The translations under genes and the position numbers were made by a program. The notes beneath the pieces are model-generated. The model was not told where the DNA came from. It did no database searches and saw only the letters and a list, made by a program, of their open reading frames with translations. A stretch of DNA of 38,899 bases from Candidatus Spyradenecus sp. (GTDB taxonomy: Bacteria > Verrucomicrobiota > Kiritimatiellia > RFP12 > DVOR01), in NCBI GenBank assembly GCA_051891975.1, contig JBJFFT010000047.1:1-38899 (forward strand). The letters are read 5' to 3'. Of the stretch, positions 3 to 36,256 are shown in pieces. The first letter of the stretch is position 1. Each line of letters starts with the position of its first letter.

Positions 3-929
3 ATCTAGGAGGTTGACCGGGGCCGAGCAGCCGGGCAGGAGAAGCGCGAGGTCGCAGTATTCGCGGTAGAGGACGGAGGCGACGTCGGCGGTGTCAGTGC
101 GCGCGAGGGTGAGGGTGAGCACTTCGCCGGGGCGGAGAAGCTCGGCGCCCAGGCTGAGGGTGAAGCCGTTATCGCGCAGGTCGCCGGGGGTGACGGTGCG
201 GCTCTCTCCGGCGCAGGTGGCCGTCACGCTCAGGCAGAGGGAGTCCTTGGCCCCCAGGAAGGGCGCGCCCGAAAGACGAAAGGCCGCCGCGCCCGAGCGC
301 AGGCTCGCCGGCAAGGCAAAGGTGAAGGTCTGCGGTTCGCCGCTCTTGAGCTCGGTGTAGTGGTTCTCCCGCGCTTCGCGGAAGGCGCGCAAGAGCCGCC
401 AACGCGGCACCCCCGCCGGGAGGCGACCCTCGGCCTGAAAGCGCGCGAAGTCGGCCTCGGCCAGCTCGGCCAACGGCGGCAGCTCAGGGGCCAGCCGCTC
501 CCGGCCCGGGGGCAAGGGGCGCCAGAGCAAGAGCGCACCCAGCGCCGCCACCGCCACGGCAAAGGGCAGGAGGTTGGCCGCCAAGCGCGCGAGCCAGAGT
601 TGCACCGGGCGCAGGGGTTTGACCAAAGGGAGCGCGAGCAGCTCGCGGTCGCGGTCGAGCGCATAGGCGTTCGCACCGGTCCAGAGCGCGGCAATGAGCA
701 GGAGCGCCCAGGCCAGGCCCAGCGCGTAGGGCGTGCGCAGCAGCTCCGGATCCTCCACCCCCGGCAACGCAATCAAGAGCAACCCCAGCGCGGCCAAGAG
801 CGCCCACAGGAAGGGCCCGCGCACCGCCCGTCGCCAAACGAGCGCCGCTTCGGCGGCAAAAGTCGACAGTCGACAGTCGACAGTCAACAGGGCGCTTACG
901 CGACGGATAGGCTGAGGGTTCGCTTCCAT
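3..929 (-). CDS. ABC-2-type permease-like membrane protein, 3' end runs off the window (not in ORF track)
   Basis: Read manually: ATG at 929 after GAGG, 10 nt after the ATPase stop; MEANPQPIRRVSALLTVDCRLSTFAAEAALVWRRAVRGPFLWALL...ALDRDRELLALPLVKPLRPVQLWLARL..., open to the edge; DR..L.L..VKPL motif typical of ABC-2 permeases. Confidence 0.75.
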   Translation of the reverse strand, partial: MEANPQPIRRVSALLTVDCRLSTFAAEAALVWRRAVRGPFLWALLAALGLLLIALPGVEDPELLRTPYALGLAWALLLIAALWTGANAYALDRDRELLALPLVKPLRPVQLWLARLAANLLPFAVAVAALGALLLWRPLPPGRERLAPELPPLAELAEADFARFQAEGRLPAGVPRWRLLRAFREARENHYTELKSGEPQTFTFALPASLRSGAAAFRLSGAPFLGAKDSLCLSVTATCAGESRTVTPGDLRDNGFTLSLGAELLRPGEVLTLTLARTDTADVASVLYREYCDLALLLPGCSAPVNLLD

Positions 930-985
930 CTTGCCTCTGCTATCGGCGTTCGGTCTGCTGCGAGCGCAGCGAGCAACTGTCGACT
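861..985. repeat. Heptamer-array element straddling a gene junction
   Basis: AGTCGAC x3 + AGTCAAC (861-888), reverse core at 891-906, CTGCTGCGAGCGCAGCGAGC at 955-974, CTGTCGACT at 977-985. Confidence 0.85.
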
Positions 986-1761
986 TCTTCTCCCACCTTC
1001 AGCCACTCCGGGCACTCGGGGGGCTTGACGGTGCAGCCGAGGGTTCGCAGGAAGACGCTTTCGAGGGAGTCTTGAAGCTCGGCAACGGGGCCTTGGAGGA
1101 GGGGGGTGCCGCGGTCGAGGATGAGAATGCGGTCGCAGGTGTCGCGGACATCCGGGAGGAGGTGCGAGGTGGTGAGAATGGCCAGGCCGCGCGCCTTGAG
1201 GGCCAGGAGGAGTTCCTTGACTTCGCGCGTGCCGATGGGGTCGAGGCCGGAGGTGGGCTCGTCGAGGATCAGCACGCGCGGGGCGTTGATGAGGGCCTGA
1301 GCAAGGCCAACGCGGCGCGTCATTCCCTTGGAGAAGGCGCCGACGCGACGGTCGCGGGCGTGCGTCAGGCCGGTGAGCTCGAGGAGGTCGTCAATCCGCG
1401 CGCGGAGGGCCTTGCCGGAGAGACCGCTCAGGCGGCCGTAGTAGGCGAGCGTCTCGCGCGGGGTGAGGAAGGGGTGCAGGTGGGTAATCTCGGGCAGGTA
1501 GCCCAGGAGCGCGTGCGCGGCGGGCGACTCGGGGGCGTGACCAAAGAGCGCGACCGAGCCGCTGTCGGGCCGCAGGAGCCCCAGGAGGATGCGGATGGCG
1601 GTGCTTTTACCCGAGCCGTTGGGGCCGAGCAGACCGAGCGCTTCGCCGGGAGCCAGGGTGAAGGAGAGGCCTTTGAGGGCTTCGACCGTGGGCCGGCCCC
1701 AGAAGTCACGGAAGGTTTTGCGCAGATCCTGCGCGCAGAGAGCGGGAATGGGCGGGGTCAT
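940..1761 (-). CDS. ABC transporter ATP-binding protein
   Basis: Walker A GPNGSGKST, signature FSKGM, Walker B LILDEPTSGLDP, H-loop SH. Confidence 0.95.
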   Translation of the reverse strand: MTPPIPALCAQDLRKTFRDFWGRPTVEALKGLSFTLAPGEALGLLGPNGSGKSTAIRILLGLLRPDSGSVALFGHAPESPAAHALLGYLPEITHLHPFLTPRETLAYYGRLSGLSGKALRARIDDLLELTGLTHARDRRVGAFSKGMTRRVGLAQALINAPRVLILDEPTSGLDPIGTREVKELLLALKARGLAILTTSHLLPDVRDTCDRILILDRGTPLLQGPVAELQDSLESVFLRTLGCTVKPPECPEWLKVGEEVDSCSLRSQQTERR

Positions 1762-2738
1762 ACAGAACTTCGCTCAAGCCTGCGCGCGCCGAGGTGGAGG
1801 CAGAGGAGCGCCAGGCAGAGGGTTTGAGGGAGGAGGAGCAGGAGCGTGGTCGGGGCCACATAGCCGGCGGCTGCGGAGGAGAGCGCGTCGAAGGGCAGAT
1901 AGGCCGAGCCGCCGAGGAAGACCAGGTCCAGCCCCACGGCCAGCACCGTCAGCGCCGCAGTCAGCCCCGGCGGCAACGCAGTGGCCAGCGCCAACGCCAC
2001 GGCCGCCGCTTGCGCCAGGAGCGCGAAGAGGGCCGGCAGGGCCGAGAGGGTCCCCCAATGGAGCGGCCCATCGAAAGAACGCAGGAGCACGAAGGCCCAC
2101 AGCGCGCACGGCATCAGCAGATTGGCCGAGAGGGCAAAGCGCGCGGAGCGGACGCGGTTGGCCGCCGCCGCGAGCGCCACGGCCCCCACGAGCGCGCCGA
2201 GGGCAGCGAGGAGCGTGGGGATGTCGGCGAAGCGGCCGGTGGTGTGATAGCGCGGGGCGGCGGCCTCGGCAATCAGGAGCGCGGGCGCCTGCGTGGCCAG
2301 GAAGAGCCCCAGGCCGAGCACGCTCCCCCCAAGCTGTCCGGCCAGCCAGGTGCCGCGCTTGAGCGGCTTGACGAAGGCGATTGCGCAGGTGCCCTCGGTC
2401 AGCGCCCGATGGAGCCGCCCGGCCCCGCCCAAGGCGAGCAGCAAGCCAAAGAGAACGGTCCCGGCCAGGCCGCAATCGCGCGGCAGGCGGCCATCCTCGG
2501 AGAAGCGTTGGAACTGGAGCATCGGCAGGACGAGCGTCCCGGCCGCGCTCGCCAAGGTGAGCAACATCGTGATGGTCGCAGCGGCAACTTCGCGACCTGC
2601 GAAGGAGGAAACAGTCACGATAGACGATAGACGATAGGCGATAATGCTGTCGCCGGAGGTGGAAAGCCCGGCCAATTGGCGCAAGCTGACCCGTCGCGGA
2701 ACGCGCTTCCCGCCTATCGCCAATCGCCTATCGTTCAT
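1758..2738 (-). CDS. ABC-2-type permease; first ~40 aa derived from a repeat element
   Basis: Multiple hydrophobic segments, AFVKPLKRGTWLAG motif; ATG overlaps upstream stop (ATGA) and its stop overlaps the ATPase start. Confidence 0.75.
   Translation of the reverse strand: MNDRRLAIGGKRVPRRVSLRQLAGLSTSGDSIIAYRLSSIVTVSSFAGREVAAATITMLLTLASAAGTLVLPMLQFQRFSEDGRLPRDCGLAGTVLFGLLLALGGAGRLHRALTEGTCAIAFVKPLKRGTWLAGQLGGSVLGLGLFLATQAPALLIAEAAAPRYHTTGRFADIPTLLAALGALVGAVALAAAANRVRSARFALSANLLMPCALWAFVLLRSFDGPLHWGTLSALPALFALLAQAAAVALALATALPPGLTAALTVLAVGLDLVFLGGSAYLPFDALSSAAAGYVAPTTLLLLLPQTLCLALLCLHLGARRLERSSV
2617..2738. repeat. Heptamer-bounded element inside the permease 5' end
   Basis: ACGATAG x3 + 31-bp core + CCGTCGCGGAACGCGC (2691-2706) + inverted CGCCTAT CGCCAAT CGCCTAT. 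Confidence 0.9.
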
Positions 2739-3754
2739 ACCTTTGCCGTGCGTTCCGTTGAAGAGCGGAGGAGTTCGTCGTCGAGGACGGCGTTGAGGAC
2801 ATCCTCCTGGGAGACGATGCCGGTGGGGGCGCCGGCGGCGTTGAGGACGATGAGGACCTTGGTCCGCCGCAAGCGCATGTAGGGCAGGAGGTTATCGGCG
2901 GGGGTGTCGGCGCGGACGAAGACCGGGGCGCGGCGCAGGTCGAAGGGCACGGGGGCCTTGGAGCGGGCGCGCAGGAGGTCGAAGAGGTGCAGGACGCCGA
3001 GGCAGCGCTCGCCGTCGTCGGAGAAGAGCGGCAGGATGCGGTGGTGGCTCTGGCGGAAGACGCGCAGGACGGTGGAGAGGTTGTCGCTTTCGTAGACGCG
3101 GACCATCCGCGCGAGCGGGGTCATCACCTGGCTAGCGCGGCGGAGCTGGAGGTCGAGCACGCGGCTGACCATTCCGCGCTCGAAGGCGGAGATTTCGCCG
3201 TGCGCCTCGGAGTCGCGCATCAGGAAGGCGAGGTTTTCGCGAGAGAGGAAGGGGGAGCGTTTGCGGCCGCGTTCGCGGGGGGTGACCAGGCGCGTGAGCA
3301 GGATGCAGAGCGAGGCGAGCGGGAAGAGGAGCGTCCGGAAGAAGAGGAAGATGGGCAGGAGCGGGCGGCAGCGCTCGATGGGCCGGGCCGTAAACCAGAG
3401 CTTGGGCAGGAACTCGCCGATGATGAGCAGCGCTATCGCCACGGCCACCGTGGCAAGGGTCTGGGCCAGGGAGGGATCGGCCCCTAATCGCGCGGCGGCC
3501 GCCAGCGCCAAGACCGTGGTCAGCGTCGAGAGCGCCACATTACAGATGTTGTTGCCCACCAGGGTGGTGGCAAGCATGCGGTGACTATCGCGCAGGGCAG
3601 TGGCGAGGGCGCGGGCGCGCTTGTCGCCGTGGCGGATGAGGTGGACCAGCCGGTGGCGGTTGAGGGAGACCATCCCACTCTCGTAGCCCGAGAAGAACCA
3701 GCTGCCCAGGAAGAAGAGGGCCATTAGGGCGAGGTTGATGATGAGCGCGCTCAC
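2735..3754 (-). CDS. CNNM/DUF21 + CBS-pair membrane protein (hemolysin/CorB family)
   Basis: FFSGYESG, TTLVGNN, GEFLPK, QVMTP, TGIVSQEDVL motifs; GTG start at 3754 overlaps the upstream TGA (GTGA). Confidence 0.9.
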   Translation of the reverse strand: MSALIINLALMALFFLGSWFFSGYESGMVSLNRHRLVHLIRHGDKRARALATALRDSHRMLATTLVGNNICNVALSTLTTVLALAAAARLGADPSLAQTLATVAVAIALLIIGEFLPKLWFTARPIERCRPLLPIFLFFRTLLFPLASLCILLTRLVTPRERGRKRSPFLSRENLAFLMRDSEAHGEISAFERGMVSRVLDLQLRRASQVMTPLARMVRVYESDNLSTVLRVFRQSHHRILPLFSDDGERCLGVLHLFDLLRARSKAPVPFDLRRAPVFVRADTPADNLLPYMRLRRTKVLIVLNAAGAPTGIVSQEDVLNAVLDDELLRSSTERTAKV

Positions 3755-5088
3755 GCCAGCGGCCCTCCTTCCTCGTCCCCCTCGCCGGTGGTTAAGTGCC
3801 CTTCGGCCTCCTCCTCGCGCGGCAGGTCGGGGTCTTGTGAGGCGGGGTCGAGGTCCTCCAAGCGCACCGAGAGGATCTTGCGCCGGCGCATCTTCTCCAC
3901 GCGGACGCGGTAGCCATCGGCCTCGATCCGCTCGCCCACGCGCGGAATCCGCCCGGCGTGGAAGGTGACCCAGCCGCTCATCCGGTCGGCATCGTCGGCC
4001 TCCAGGTGGGTGCCGAGCTCGAAGTTGATCTGCTCGAGGGCCGCGTCGCCGGCGACAATCCACATATTCGGCCCCACGCTGCGCACATCGGCCGCTTCGG
4101 CCGCGCCCGGCTCGTCCTCGGTCTCCAGCGAGAGCAGCTCCAAAATATCCCCACGCGAGACGATCCCCGCCGTCCCGCCATACTCGTCGGAGACCAGGAC
4201 CATCGGCAGGTGCTGGCGGTAGAGCATCACCAGCAGGTCGTCCAGGCAGATGTTCTCGGGCACGGCCTGGGTGCAGTGGCAGCGGGCGGCCTCCAGGTTG
4301 TGGCTGGGGTCGAGCAGATAGCGCTGCACGTCCACAAAGTCGATGAAGTTATCCGGCGTCTCGTCCCAGAGCGGCATCCAGACGAAGGGGGCCGAGCGCA
4401 TCTGCTGCTCGTGCTCGGCGGGGCTATCGTGCACATCCAGGCCAATGAGGTCCACGCGCGGGGTCATCACGTCCGAGGCATTGAGGTCGCTCAAGCGCAG
4501 GATGCCGCGCACCATCGCCCCCTCCTCGCGGTCCAGCGCGCCCCGCTCCTGCCCCAAATTGACCACGCTCACGAGCTCCTCGTCCGAGACCGCCCGCCGT
4601 TCAGGCACCAGCGTCTTACGAAAAGGCTTCAGGAGCCGCTGCAAACACCACGTCAGCGGCCGGAAGAGGGGAATGGCCACGCGCATCACCCGCACAATCA
4701 GCGGCATCACCCCCTCGGCGTGCTGAATGGCAAACTGCTTCGGGCTGATCTCCCCAAAGAGCAACACCAGCGCCGTCACCGCCAAGATACTCGCCGCCTC
4801 TGCCAACTGCGCGCTCACCCATCCCGAACGCACCACAAAGGAATACCCCACGCTCGCCAGCGCCGCATTCACAAAGGTGTTCCCAATCAAAATCGTGGAG
4901 AGCAACACCTCCGGCTCGGCCAAGAGGCGCGAGAGTTGTTCCCCCAACCCCGCACGCCGCTCGCGAATCCGCTGAATCTGCGCCGGCGAGAGCGACAGCA
5001 ACGCCGTCTCGCTCCCCGAAAAAAAGGCCGACAGTGCCAATAACAGCACGAACGCAATGCAAAAGCCAACCAGCTCAACGCAACTCAT
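3751..5088 (-). CDS. CNNM/DUF21 + CBS + CorC_HlyC protein (TlyC/CorB family)
   Basis: SAFFSGSETAL, TILIGNT, FGEISPK, DVMTPRVD, DEYGGTAGIV, C-terminal CorC domain; start set at ATG 5088. Confidence 0.92.
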   Translation of the reverse strand: MSCVELVGFCIAFVLLLALSAFFSGSETALLSLSPAQIQRIRERRAGLGEQLSRLLAEPEVLLSTILIGNTFVNAALASVGYSFVVRSGWVSAQLAEAASILAVTALVLLFGEISPKQFAIQHAEGVMPLIVRVMRVAIPLFRPLTWCLQRLLKPFRKTLVPERRAVSDEELVSVVNLGQERGALDREEGAMVRGILRLSDLNASDVMTPRVDLIGLDVHDSPAEHEQQMRSAPFVWMPLWDETPDNFIDFVDVQRYLLDPSHNLEAARCHCTQAVPENICLDDLLVMLYRQHLPMVLVSDEYGGTAGIVSRGDILELLSLETEDEPGAAEAADVRSVGPNMWIVAGDAALEQINFELGTHLEADDADRMSGWVTFHAGRIPRVGERIEADGYRVRVEKMRRRKILSVRLEDLDPASQDPDLPREEEAEGHLTTGEGDEEGGPLA

Positions 5089-6056: not shown

Positions 6057-6140
6057 GCCGGAATGGTGGAATGGCAGACACAGCGGACTTAAAATCCGCA
6101 GCCGCAAGGCGTAGGGGTTCGACTCCCCTTTCCGGCACCA
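6057..6140 (+). tRNA. tRNA-Leu (anticodon TAA)
   Basis: Acceptor GCCGGAA/TTCCGGC + ACCA; anticodon stem GCGGA-CTTAAAA-TCCGC; long variable arm GCCGCAAGGC; T-loop GTTCGAC. Confidence 0.97.
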
Positions 6141-6210: not shown

Positions 6211-6333
6211 GACCTAGGCCCTACCTTGGGTCGACCTAGGCCCTACCTCGGGTCGACCTAGGCCCTACCTCGGGTCGACCTAGGCCCTACCTCGAGTTGA
6301 CCTAGGGCCTATCGCGCGCGCGTACGCGCGTAG
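6211..6333 (-). repeat. Composite element copy A: 22-bp tandem array + RY-alternating head (inverted)
   Basis: About 4.5 copies of GACCTAGGCCCTACCTCGGGTC followed by CCTATCGCGCGCGCGTACGCGCG. Confidence 0.92.
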
Positions 6334-11597: not shown

Positions 11598-13502
<1,905 letters not shown>

Positions 13503-13550
13503 TGCTCTATTCCTTTCTTGCGGCTGCTGCCGCGTCAGTTCGTCTCCCTT

Positions 13551-13567
13551 TGCAACCCCCGTGCCAA
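13551..13567 (-). promoter_or_regulatory. Sigma54 (-24/-12) promoter of dnaK-groES-groEL
   Basis: Minus strand TTGGCACGGGGGTTGCA: exact GG-N10-GC fit to YTGGCACGrnnnTTGCW, ~50 nt upstream of the dnaK ATG. Confidence 0.8.
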
Positions 13568-13600
13568 ACCGAACTTCCCCCCCGTCCTTCGCCCCCAACC

Positions 13601-13660
13601 GTGCCACACTGTGCCACATCGTGCCAAACCGTGCCACGCCCCTGCCACAACCGTGCCACC
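13601..13660 (-). repeat. 10-11-bp-period array of TGGCA(C) boxes
   Basis: GTGCCA on + strand at 13601, 13611, 13621, 13631, 13653 and CTGCCA at 13642. Confidence 0.85.
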
Positions 13661-13681
13661 TCCGTGGCAGGGTTGTTTTTC

Positions 13682-13818
13682 CGATAGGCGATAGACGATA
13701 GACGAGAAAGCTGTCGCCGGAGGTGGAAAGCCCGGCCAATGGGCTGCCGGTTCCTCCGTCGCGGCACGCGCCCTGTCCACTGTTGACTGGCCACTGTCGA
13801 CTGGCTTGCGCAGCGACC
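13682..13818 (+). repeat. Heptamer-array element with 31-bp core shared with 2617-2738
   Basis: (CGATAGR)x3 + GCTGTCGCCGGAGGTGGAAAGCCCGGCCAAT + CCGTCGCGGCACGCGC + CTGTCCA CTGTTGA CTGGCCA CTGTCGA. Confidence 0.9.
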
Positions 13819-13819
13819 C

Positions 13820-14094
13820 GCCCCGGGTTGACCTCGCATCCGCCTCGGGTTCGTCTTGGACCCGGGGCGAGGGGAATTATTAAGTCCCGGACTTATCGGA
13901 ATTAAGTGGTGGACTTATCGCCGATAAGTGGTGGACTTATTTCCGATAAGTGGTGGACTTAATAGTTCGACCCGGGGCGGGTGCGTTTTGGGCCCGGGGC
14001 GCTTTACATTTTTGTCCGCCCCGGGTTCGCCTCGAGGTAGGCCCGGGTTGACCCTCGACCCGGCCCGAGTTCGCTTTTGGCCCGGCCCAGGTGA
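13820..14094. repeat. 11-bp-period lattice containing four 22-bp-spaced TAAGT-N5-ACTTA palindromes
   Basis: TAAGT at 13881, 13903, 13925, 13947; GCCCCGGGTT at 13820 and 14018 (198 = 18x11 apart). Confidence 0.85.
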
Positions 14095-17680: not shown

Positions 17681-17822
17681 AGCGGACAGCCGACAGCGGA
17701 CAGCCGACAGTGCTGGCGCAGAGAATGAAAAGCCCGTCTGAGCCGTGGGAGGTGCTCAGGCGGGCTTTTGGGGTGTTCGTCGCGCGAGCGGAGCTGTCGG
17801 CTGTCCGCTGTCCGCTGTCGGC
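17681..17822. repeat. Inverted heptamer arrays enclosing a terminator
   Basis: (AGCSGAC)x4 at 17681-17708 and the reverse complement (GCTGTCS)x4 at 17793-17820. Confidence 0.9.
17728..17769. terminator. Bidirectional intrinsic terminator downstream of the nanA-AGE-gtrA operon
   Basis: AAAAGCCCGTCTGAGC...GCTCAGGCGGGCTTTT. Confidence 0.85.
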
Positions 17823-23948: not shown

Positions 23949-24077
23949 GCGCACGCGCACGCGCCTACGCGCGCGATAGGCCCTAGGTCACCTCGAGGTA
24001 GGCCCTAGCTCACCTCGACCTAGGCCCTAGGTCGACCCGAGGTAGGCCCTAGGTCGACCCGAGGTAGGGCCTACCTC
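23949..24077 (+). repeat. Composite element copy B
   Basis: CACGCGCACGCGCCTACGCGCGCGATAGG + ~4.5 copies of CCCTAGGTCGACCCGAGGTAGG-like 22-mers. Confidence 0.92.
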
Positions 24078-31798: not shown

Positions 31799-31900
31799 AC
31801 GCGCTCACGCGCACGCGCCTACGCGCGCGATAGGCCCTAGCTCACCTCGAGGTAGGGCCTAGGTCGAGGCGAGGTAGGCCCTAGGTCGAGTCGACCTAGG
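31799..31900 (+). repeat. Composite element copy C (left flank of the LRR cassette)
   Basis: GCGCTCACGCGCACGCGCCTACGCGCGCGATAGGCCCTAG + ~3 degenerate 22-mers. Confidence 0.92.
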
Positions 31901-32163
31901 CGCTGGCTCTTTGTACCTCCGGCGTGCAAAACAAACCCGGCCGTGGCACCGCGTTGACGAGCATCGCGCCATTGGAACACATAAAAGCACTTTACAGGCA
32001 CACCGAAAGATGGTAGGCTTTCAAATGAACATAGGGAGTTCCCTATCATCAGCCTCGGTCAAGCAACTGGCGTTGCACTTGGCCCTTGCTGGCAAAAAGG
32101 AGGCTTGGGTCTTAGCCATCCGGATTGTGACAAACTGAAAAGACCGGCAAGGAAGAGAAGCAG

Positions 32164-35960: not shown

Positions 35961-36085
35961 CGCGCGCTCACGCGCACGCGTCTACGCGCGCGATAGGCCC
36001 TAGGTCACCGCGAGGTAGGGCCTAGGTCGCCTCGAGGTAGGCCCTAGGTCACCTCGAGGTAGGCGCTACCTCTGAGCGAGGTAGG
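35961..36085 (+). repeat. Composite element copy D (right flank of the LRR cassette, same orientation as C)
   Basis: CGCGCGCTCACGCGCACGCGTCTACGCGCGCGATAGGCCCTAGG + ~4 22-mers. Confidence 0.92.
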
Positions 36086-36256
36086 CGAGGCCCCAAAAGG
36101 GCATGGGGGCAGAGGGCAGGCCAGGGTGGTGCGGGCGTTTTTTGCCCCAGTGCGGCCTGGCGGAGCAGGCCACCGCGCCACGCTTACCCTCCCCTGGCAA
36201 AACGCTTCATAGCGCCCTCCGCCCGCCCCTTCCCCCTGGTGTGCCTTTCAGCCGGC

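Follow-up and report, generated by a model that had tools for sequence, protein, structure and literature searches.

The described systems closest to the element reported here are extragenic palindromic repeats (REP/BIME, ERIC, Correia and MITE), heptamer repeats and the Rickettsia palindromic elements (RPEs). REPs have a GTAG head, and the cyanobacterial STRRs are heptamer tandem repeats. RPEs, as characterized in a review of MITEs, are short dispersed palindromic repeats kept in frame in protein genes, to whose products they add peptide segments (PMC10969869). MacGregor 2015 places heptamer direct repeats a few nucleotides upstream of start codons, the ORFs concerned mostly having no ribosome-binding site, and records TAACTGA repeats in Beggiatoaceae, Cyanobacteria and Bacteroidetes (PMC4679880).

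The window, by which we mean the whole stretch of 38,899 nucleotides analyzed, is contig C47 of the source genome G000 (2.14 Mb in 215 contigs, 65.5% GC, 92% complete). On its minus strand, ORF 2735..4063 encodes a protein with Pfam CNNM and CBS domains and ends with a TGA at 2735..2737; the C-terminus of this protein (...STER(T/M)AKV*) is kept in the related genomes G003, G014 and G009. The stop codon is overlapped by an ATG (2736..2738) in an ATGA arrangement, the minus strand reading GGT ATG AAC GAT AGG across the junction, and the longest ORF counted from this ATG comprises 326 codons (1758..2738, minus strand). It has no match of its own in Pfam or NCBIfam. Since PF12679 is present in one of 26 clusters of its homologs and since the neighboring ORF (940..1761, minus strand) encodes an ABC_tran ATPase, the start of which overlaps the stop of the 326-codon ORF as ATGA, we annotate the product as a putative ABC-2-type permease. 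Rfam at gathering thresholds returned a tRNA at 6057-6137 only for the whole window and nothing on the repeat element at the CNNM/permease junction. Contigs of RNA run X16 cover parts of the stretch, none of them across the element, at which depth is inflated by other copies.

The element occupies 117 bp (2617-2733), begins 1 nt past the CNNM TGA and spans codons 2-40 of the 326-codon frame. The segment represents a single copy of a composite palindromic repeat that is restricted to one lineage and built in the order heptamer array, GCTGGCGCC..GAGGTGGAAAGCCCGGCC core, CCGTCGCGG box and inverted heptamer array. The array at 2711..2733 (CGCCTAT on the plus strand; CGATAGG-CGATTGG-CGATAGG in mRNA sense) was scored by Tandem Repeats Finder (TRF) at period 7, with 3.3 copies and 87% matches, and is the inverse of that at 2617..2643 (ACGATAG x3.9; period 7, 3.9 copies, 95% matches). 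The conserved box CCGTCGCGGAACGCGC (2691..2706, plus strand) has 91 copies in the genome at ≤2 mismatches, and the conserved 31-bp core GCTGTCGCCGGAGGTGGAAAGCCCGGCCAAT (2646..2676, plus strand) is identical to 13710-13740; 2618-2676 and 13682-13740 share 93% identity over 59 nt. The initial annotation had placed an ATG at 2738 over the CNNM stop, read the first ~40 codons as inverted heptamer arrays plus a core with these 31 bp, and had the frame continue open into the permease body. All of this is borne out by the minus-strand letters (ATG 2738-2736, TGA 2737-2735), the TRF arrays, the exact 31-mer and the 326-codon ORF.

The RNA of 2590-2760 (minus strand) is predicted to fold at -74.6 kcal/mol, a stability attained by 0 of 200 shuffles (z = -3.68). 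In the predicted fold the two arrays pair mutually; the stem begins just past the AUG and has codon 41, the GUG, in its 3' base. The middle unit of array 2711-2733 has TTG in place of an in-frame TAG, and this CGATTGG variant is found in one of 47 units across 15 CGATAG-type arrays. The tryptic peptide LSSIVTVSSFAGR spans the edge of the element. A stem inside the core (GCCGG...CCGGC) was considered and discarded, as variable positions in 29 core copies are without compensating changes. The core also contains GGAGGTG on the plus strand, a perfect Shine-Dalgarno (SD)-like string, and the mRNA of antisense copies such as 2646-2676 has CACCUCC, which we take to be a mimic of the 16S rRNA tail that could pair with ribosome-binding sites.

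The genome G000 holds 20 copies of the core at ≤6 mismatches and 29 at ≤8, and because the core is multicopy the element is not a product of chance. The core was found in five of 41 related genomes (G000, 20; G003, 62; G018, 13; G014, 6; G009, 4), and the reversed core sequence, used as a control, gave 0 matches in the 41 genomes. All 29 copies show the same order of array, core, about 15 variable nt, box and array; the arrays around them comprise several heptamer types (CGATAGG, AGTCGAC, GCTAACA, GCGGACA), and the two arrays of a copy need not be complementary. TRF detected 383 arrays of period 7, 14 or 21 in the 2.14-Mb genome, the count of a stricter first detector being 64. Looser CCGTCGCG boxes with an array directly after them number 121; boxes were counted if an array follows, a plain 9-mer scan with 1 mismatch being too permissive (1469 matches, mostly intragenic). 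Genes were classified on both sides for 18 of the 29 core copies (11 unclassified): 7 are in convergent, 11 in co-directional and 0 in divergent surroundings, and each of the 18 follows the 3' end of one or both neighboring genes. Core copies thus occupy the kind of site typical of REP/BIME sequences, extragenic and in transcribed regions at gene 3' ends, and the initial annotation's view of the repeat as a non-coding element holds in that the family is dispersed and mostly extragenic.

The Y1 transposase profile PF01797 (RAYT) gave 0 matches in G000 and G014. Partial Y1_Tnp matches occur in G003, G009 and G018 inside frames of 344-405 codons that are not flanked by the core; as these matches are weak and without link to the repeats, a Y1 transposase was dropped as the mobilizer of the family. 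No direct repeat indicative of a target-site duplication was seen by eye at the borders of the permease junction. Judged by title or abstract, none of the papers retrieved on intergenic repeats of Kiritimatiellae describes such a family. Whichever start codon the permease uses, these repeats constitute a lineage-restricted family of unusual build, undescribed so far.

Compared with the known systems, the family resembles RPEs in that in-frame protein insertion is seen in carB (see below) and is possible at the permease N-terminus. It differs from them in its host, a member of the Kiritimatiellae, in the mostly extragenic position of its copies, and in ends formed by variable heptamer arrays instead of fixed sequence; scans of Pfam and NCBIfam revealed no RPE family likeness of the encoded peptide, a result that depends on these libraries holding an RPE model. 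With REP/BIME, ERIC, Correia and MITE sequences it shares dozens of copies in transcribed intergenic space and strong hairpin potential. In contrast to REP/BIME, however, there is no RAYT-type Y1 transposase in G000 or G014, and no GTAG head was seen in the element; moreover, at the permease the element replaces 59 nt and is not a plain insertion. As to the terminal inverted repeats of MITEs, the permease copy has inverted arrays, but other copies have non-complementary ones. Like the STRR and TAACTGA heptamer repeats, the arrays of period 7 are abundant, mostly intergenic and often beside starts lacking an SD. They differ in comprising several types (CGATAGG, AGTCGAC, GCTAACA, GCGGACA, GATGACA), arranged as inverted pairs around conserved boxes, and in belonging to a GC-rich genome of another phylum.

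Two further copies bear on whether such elements are translated. The sister element at 13682..13805, which contains the second copy of the 31-mer, lies about 180 nt upstream of dnaK and is open in the dnaK frame, outside the protein. ORF 11598..13739 (minus strand, 713 codons) has 79 open codons before dnaK, in the same reading frame (AGLSTSGDS...) as the permease copy, and the HSP70 profile begins at its residue 83. An open frame across the element can therefore arise by chance. The surroundings of this copy are themselves repetitive: a 10-nt tandem repeat (CGTGCCACAN-like, 13596-13659) separates it from dnaK, and a 22-nt repeat (GGACTTATCGCCGATAAGTGGT, 13879-13961) stands on its far side. 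The intergenic region at 13.67-14.02 kb has matches at dozens of sites across G003, G009 and G014, although the orthologous locus of G003 is built differently.

The other copy came to light when long frames of high GC3 were searched for paired arrays, a search that yielded one clear internal in-gene insertion in G000. It is an insert of 56 codons in the linker of carB (C157:3687-3853; locus L037 2088-2254), with CPSase domains on both sides, built of AGCCGAC arrays, GCGCGTT..., ...AAGCGCCAGC and then GCTGTCGG arrays. The insert is unbroken in G000, in G003 (97% over the 356-aa query) and in G009 (96%). At the same site, carB of G014 carries in frame a different, canonical element of 42 codons (AGTCGAC arrays, GCTGGCGCC..., CCGTCGCGGAACGCG and CTGTCGA arrays), and carB of G010 and G026 has a short linker only. 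In six more genus members the carB alignment is split, the middle being missing; for five of these, and for G029, the motif search did not retrieve linker sequences. Neither the 56-aa carB insert nor the 41-aa permease extension has an NCBIfam match. In carB, then, a conserved gene holds an in-frame insertion that orthologs do not have, as in genes with RPEs. On sequence grounds, members of the family demonstrably can be translated, carB being the clear in-frame case. The initial annotation's RPE-like interpretation, of a repeat exapted or tolerated as protein, is right for the family, since related elements stand in frame inside carB in four genomes; for the permease copy we consider its chances about even.

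The permease is present in 39 of 41 relatives. Only the ortholog of G003 (96% identical) aligns from residue 1, and the others align from residue 16-55, mostly 34-51; thus, in the alignment proposed earlier as a check, the 40-codon extension is missing elsewhere. In 13 of the 26 homolog clusters the protein measures 286-288 aa, which is the length of the product started at a GTG at 2618, and the modal ortholog length is 286. Clusters of 326 aa and 309 aa have 16 and 24 members, respectively. Distant orthologs start with M-x(2-4)-KL(W/R)AIAWF..., about 22 residues ahead of the LLLTLASA helix; in other members of the genus, the start codon of the ortholog lies at the upstream stop or no more than 1-4 nt away from it (TGATG, TGAGATG, ATGA).

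At the G014 junction, ATGA is followed by a 27-nt spacer containing AGGAGAGGG, a well-placed SD, and then by TTG-ACA-GTC-GAC, the spacer amounting to 10 codons. The 309-aa cluster has three more heptamers (+21 nt) after a TTG of the G014 type. Contigs of runs X3 and X5 have 59 nt where the window has 122, a difference of 63 nt or 21 codons. G009 carries at this junction a different element in reverse orientation, about 56 codons long and open, with no ATG, GTG or TTG from codon 3 to the constrained N-terminus. All of these alleles (G014, G009, X3/X5 contigs) leave the ATG in frame. As shown by comparison with the element-free alleles, the element replaced, in the ancestor of G000 and G003, a short SD-bearing spacer and the first ~7 permease codons. 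Between the ATGA and the TTG, the spacers of G014 and G009 differ by 3 nonsynonymous and 0 synonymous changes, the corresponding figures just downstream being 2 and 7 (manual count). The SD and TTG of G014 and a spacer devoid of protein constraint suggest that the ancestral permease started at the TTG and not at the ATG.

That the junction in the window is an assembly artefact, or the permease a decaying pseudogene, we regard as highly improbable. Repeats do break assemblies, contigs of run X1 stop inside the core, and many core matches in relatives lie near contig ends. However, in G003, an independent genome, a single contig crosses the whole junction with the same element. A scan of genome contigs with the permease retrieved only this contig and one relative at 45%; a scan of metagenome contigs retrieved no relative. 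Decay, in turn, is at odds with the selection seen between these two genomes. Over codons 58-326, G000 and G003 differ by 22 synonymous and 11 nonsynonymous codon differences, and the comparison shows a permease kept under purifying selection after the element arrived.

Upstream of this region, codons 42-57 (TVSSFAGREVAAATIT; 2568..2615, minus strand) show constraint at the protein level, with 3 synonymous and 0 nonsynonymous codon differences to G003 and 10 and 2, respectively, to G014 (manual count on the alignment). Given this pattern of synonymous change, these codons are translated, and the ATG at codon 58 (2565..2567, minus strand), which lies 3' of them, is excluded as a start. Of the two downstream starts that the initial annotation had named as fatal to its proposal, one (ATG ~2567) is thereby eliminated and the other (GTG ~2617) is fully viable, as it lies at the element edge and gives the modal 286 aa. 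Two principal candidates on the minus strand are thus the ATG at 2736..2738 and the GTG of codon 41 (2616..2618), both without an SD. The genome does use SD sequences: when 1022 long ORFs are aligned by their first ATG, the motif peaks sharply at -14..-9. Since none of the candidate permease starts has an SD motif and since 2400-3000 contains neither a sigma-70-like promoter nor a terminator, coupling to the upstream stop is the simplest route to translation.

Translation of the element from the ATG at 2738 has, in our estimate, an even chance of being correct. Ribosomes that are done with the CNNM gene would most likely re-initiate at the ATG overlapping the TGA and would then read through the element as codons. 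The product would be lengthened, before its first membrane helix, by a basic tail of 40 residues with a net charge of about +5, an outcome that would amount to RPE-like in-frame tolerance of selfish DNA, as for the related elements in carB. In favor of this start, ATGA is also the junction type between the permease and its own ATPase, the orthologs likewise start at or beside the upstream stop, the GTG at 2618 is buried in the base of the -74.6 kcal/mol hairpin, and the one heptamer that would yield an in-frame TAG is the rare CGATTGG. The open frame as such argues only weakly for translation, because open frames are about as common in control frames and occur at dnaK. Elements with two arrays upstream of genes are open in the gene frame in 10 of 45 cases and in the other frames in 15 of 90; with every array region included, ordinary coding repeats among them, the values are 113 of 180 and 186 of 360. 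The box shows no preferred phase: of 50 cases 26 are closed, and the 24 open ones are distributed 11/7/6.

The principal alternative, to which we assign somewhat less than an even chance, is a hairpin of the REP/BIME type that lies between the two cistrons and stays untranslated; the permease, of 286 aa, would then start at the GTG at 2618 in its 3' base. Halted at the TGA, with the 5' base of the stem only 1 nt away, a ribosome would open the lower part of the stem and bare the GTG opposite, so that coupling would be maintained across a looped-out element; alternatively, the heptamer array might serve as an SD-independent landing site. The product has the modal ortholog length, and constrained sequence starts immediately after the GTG; in G014, the TTG with its SD occupies the equivalent place. 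Moreover, 35 of the 45 two-array elements upstream of genes carry a stop in the gene frame, so a start downstream of the element is the norm. An array edge is also where several genes lacking an SD begin, with a stop inside the element (e.g. C51:24716-24836, C91:12524-12633). The position of all 18 classified core copies downstream of a gene 3' end, with none between divergent genes, agrees with an extragenic hairpin, and the dnaK copy shows that the open frame could be fortuitous. Heptamer repeats just upstream of starts without a ribosome-binding site have been published, as cited above (PMC4679880). On the other hand, this would be a GTG without an SD, in a genome that uses SDs, inside the base of a very stable stem, and G009 has no canonical start at the equivalent edge. 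The excess of start codons at array edges is weak (10 against 4.5 expected in the -6..-1 bin). Nor does a start at the GTG account for the ATG having stayed in frame through three independent length changes.

In-frame TTGs at codons 6, 19 and 22 would allow a start within the element, which would then be translated in part; they have no SD, lie within the predicted stem-loop and find no comparative support. We judge such a start, or the use of both the ATG at 2738 and the GTG at 2618, to be improbable.

The junction between the ATPase gene and the next gene (window 857-942; loci L002-L004) is likewise full of repeats. In the window, a box and heptamer array (857..910) fall within the first 24 codons of ORF 3..929 (minus strand), an SD-like AGAGG and the ATG at 929 standing upstream of them. 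G000 and G014 share this arrangement of SD-like motif and ATG followed by box and array as codons 8-24, and G003 and G009 have different repeats. In the latter two genomes the sole canonical in-frame starts of the next gene are far upstream, with 38-62 codons between them and the conserved AAEAAL...WRRAVRGP. The permease-ATPase junction of G009 (L004) and the ATPase-next gene junction of G003 (L002) share a module, ...GACGCGACGGATAAACTGAAA(A/G)CAGAGAC(C/T)ATGCCACCTCTTTCCACAGAC..., the ATG of which is, at both junctions, in the reading frame of the gene that follows.

If the permease element is translated from the ATG at 2738, it would identify a second bacterial lineage, far from Rickettsia, that tolerates selfish palindromic repeats as protein, and would illustrate how an insertion at a stop/start overlap survives by keeping frame. 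Gene callers will carry ORFs through such repeats in a GC-rich genome, dnaK being an example of the possible error. A broader, speculative view, which we think unlikely in its full extent, is that in a small clade of gut Kiritimatiellae modular palindromic cassettes bounded by heptamers colonize gene junctions and protein linkers and regularly become part of proteins, as new N-terminal tails, C-terminal ends or linkers, acting as portable translational-coupling cassettes and as a source of disordered segments.

Arrays of GATGACA/GAGGACA units number 22 genome-wide (e.g. C104:850-891, C51:9464-9484, C110:21951-21971). Twelve of them are found where a long gene of the same orientation ends, and 7 of these 12 contain the TGA of that gene; on the opposite strand, a gene TGA falls inside the array in 0 of 22. 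The units contain ATG, TGA and GAGG; in the speculative view given above, some of them hold these in every phase, so that an insertion at an overlapping stop and start would restore both termination and re-initiation.

Other repeats are found elsewhere in the window. At 17681-17819, inverted GCGGACA/AGCCGAC arrays surround a terminator-like hairpin (AAAAGCCCGTCTGAG...CTCAGGCGGGCTTTT). Additionally, a 22-nt tandem repeat (GACCTAGGCCCTACCTCGGGTC and relatives) forms four arrays (6211-6311, 23977-24073, 31824-31901 and 35987-36086), one array of this type being situated directly after the tRNA gene at 6057-6137.
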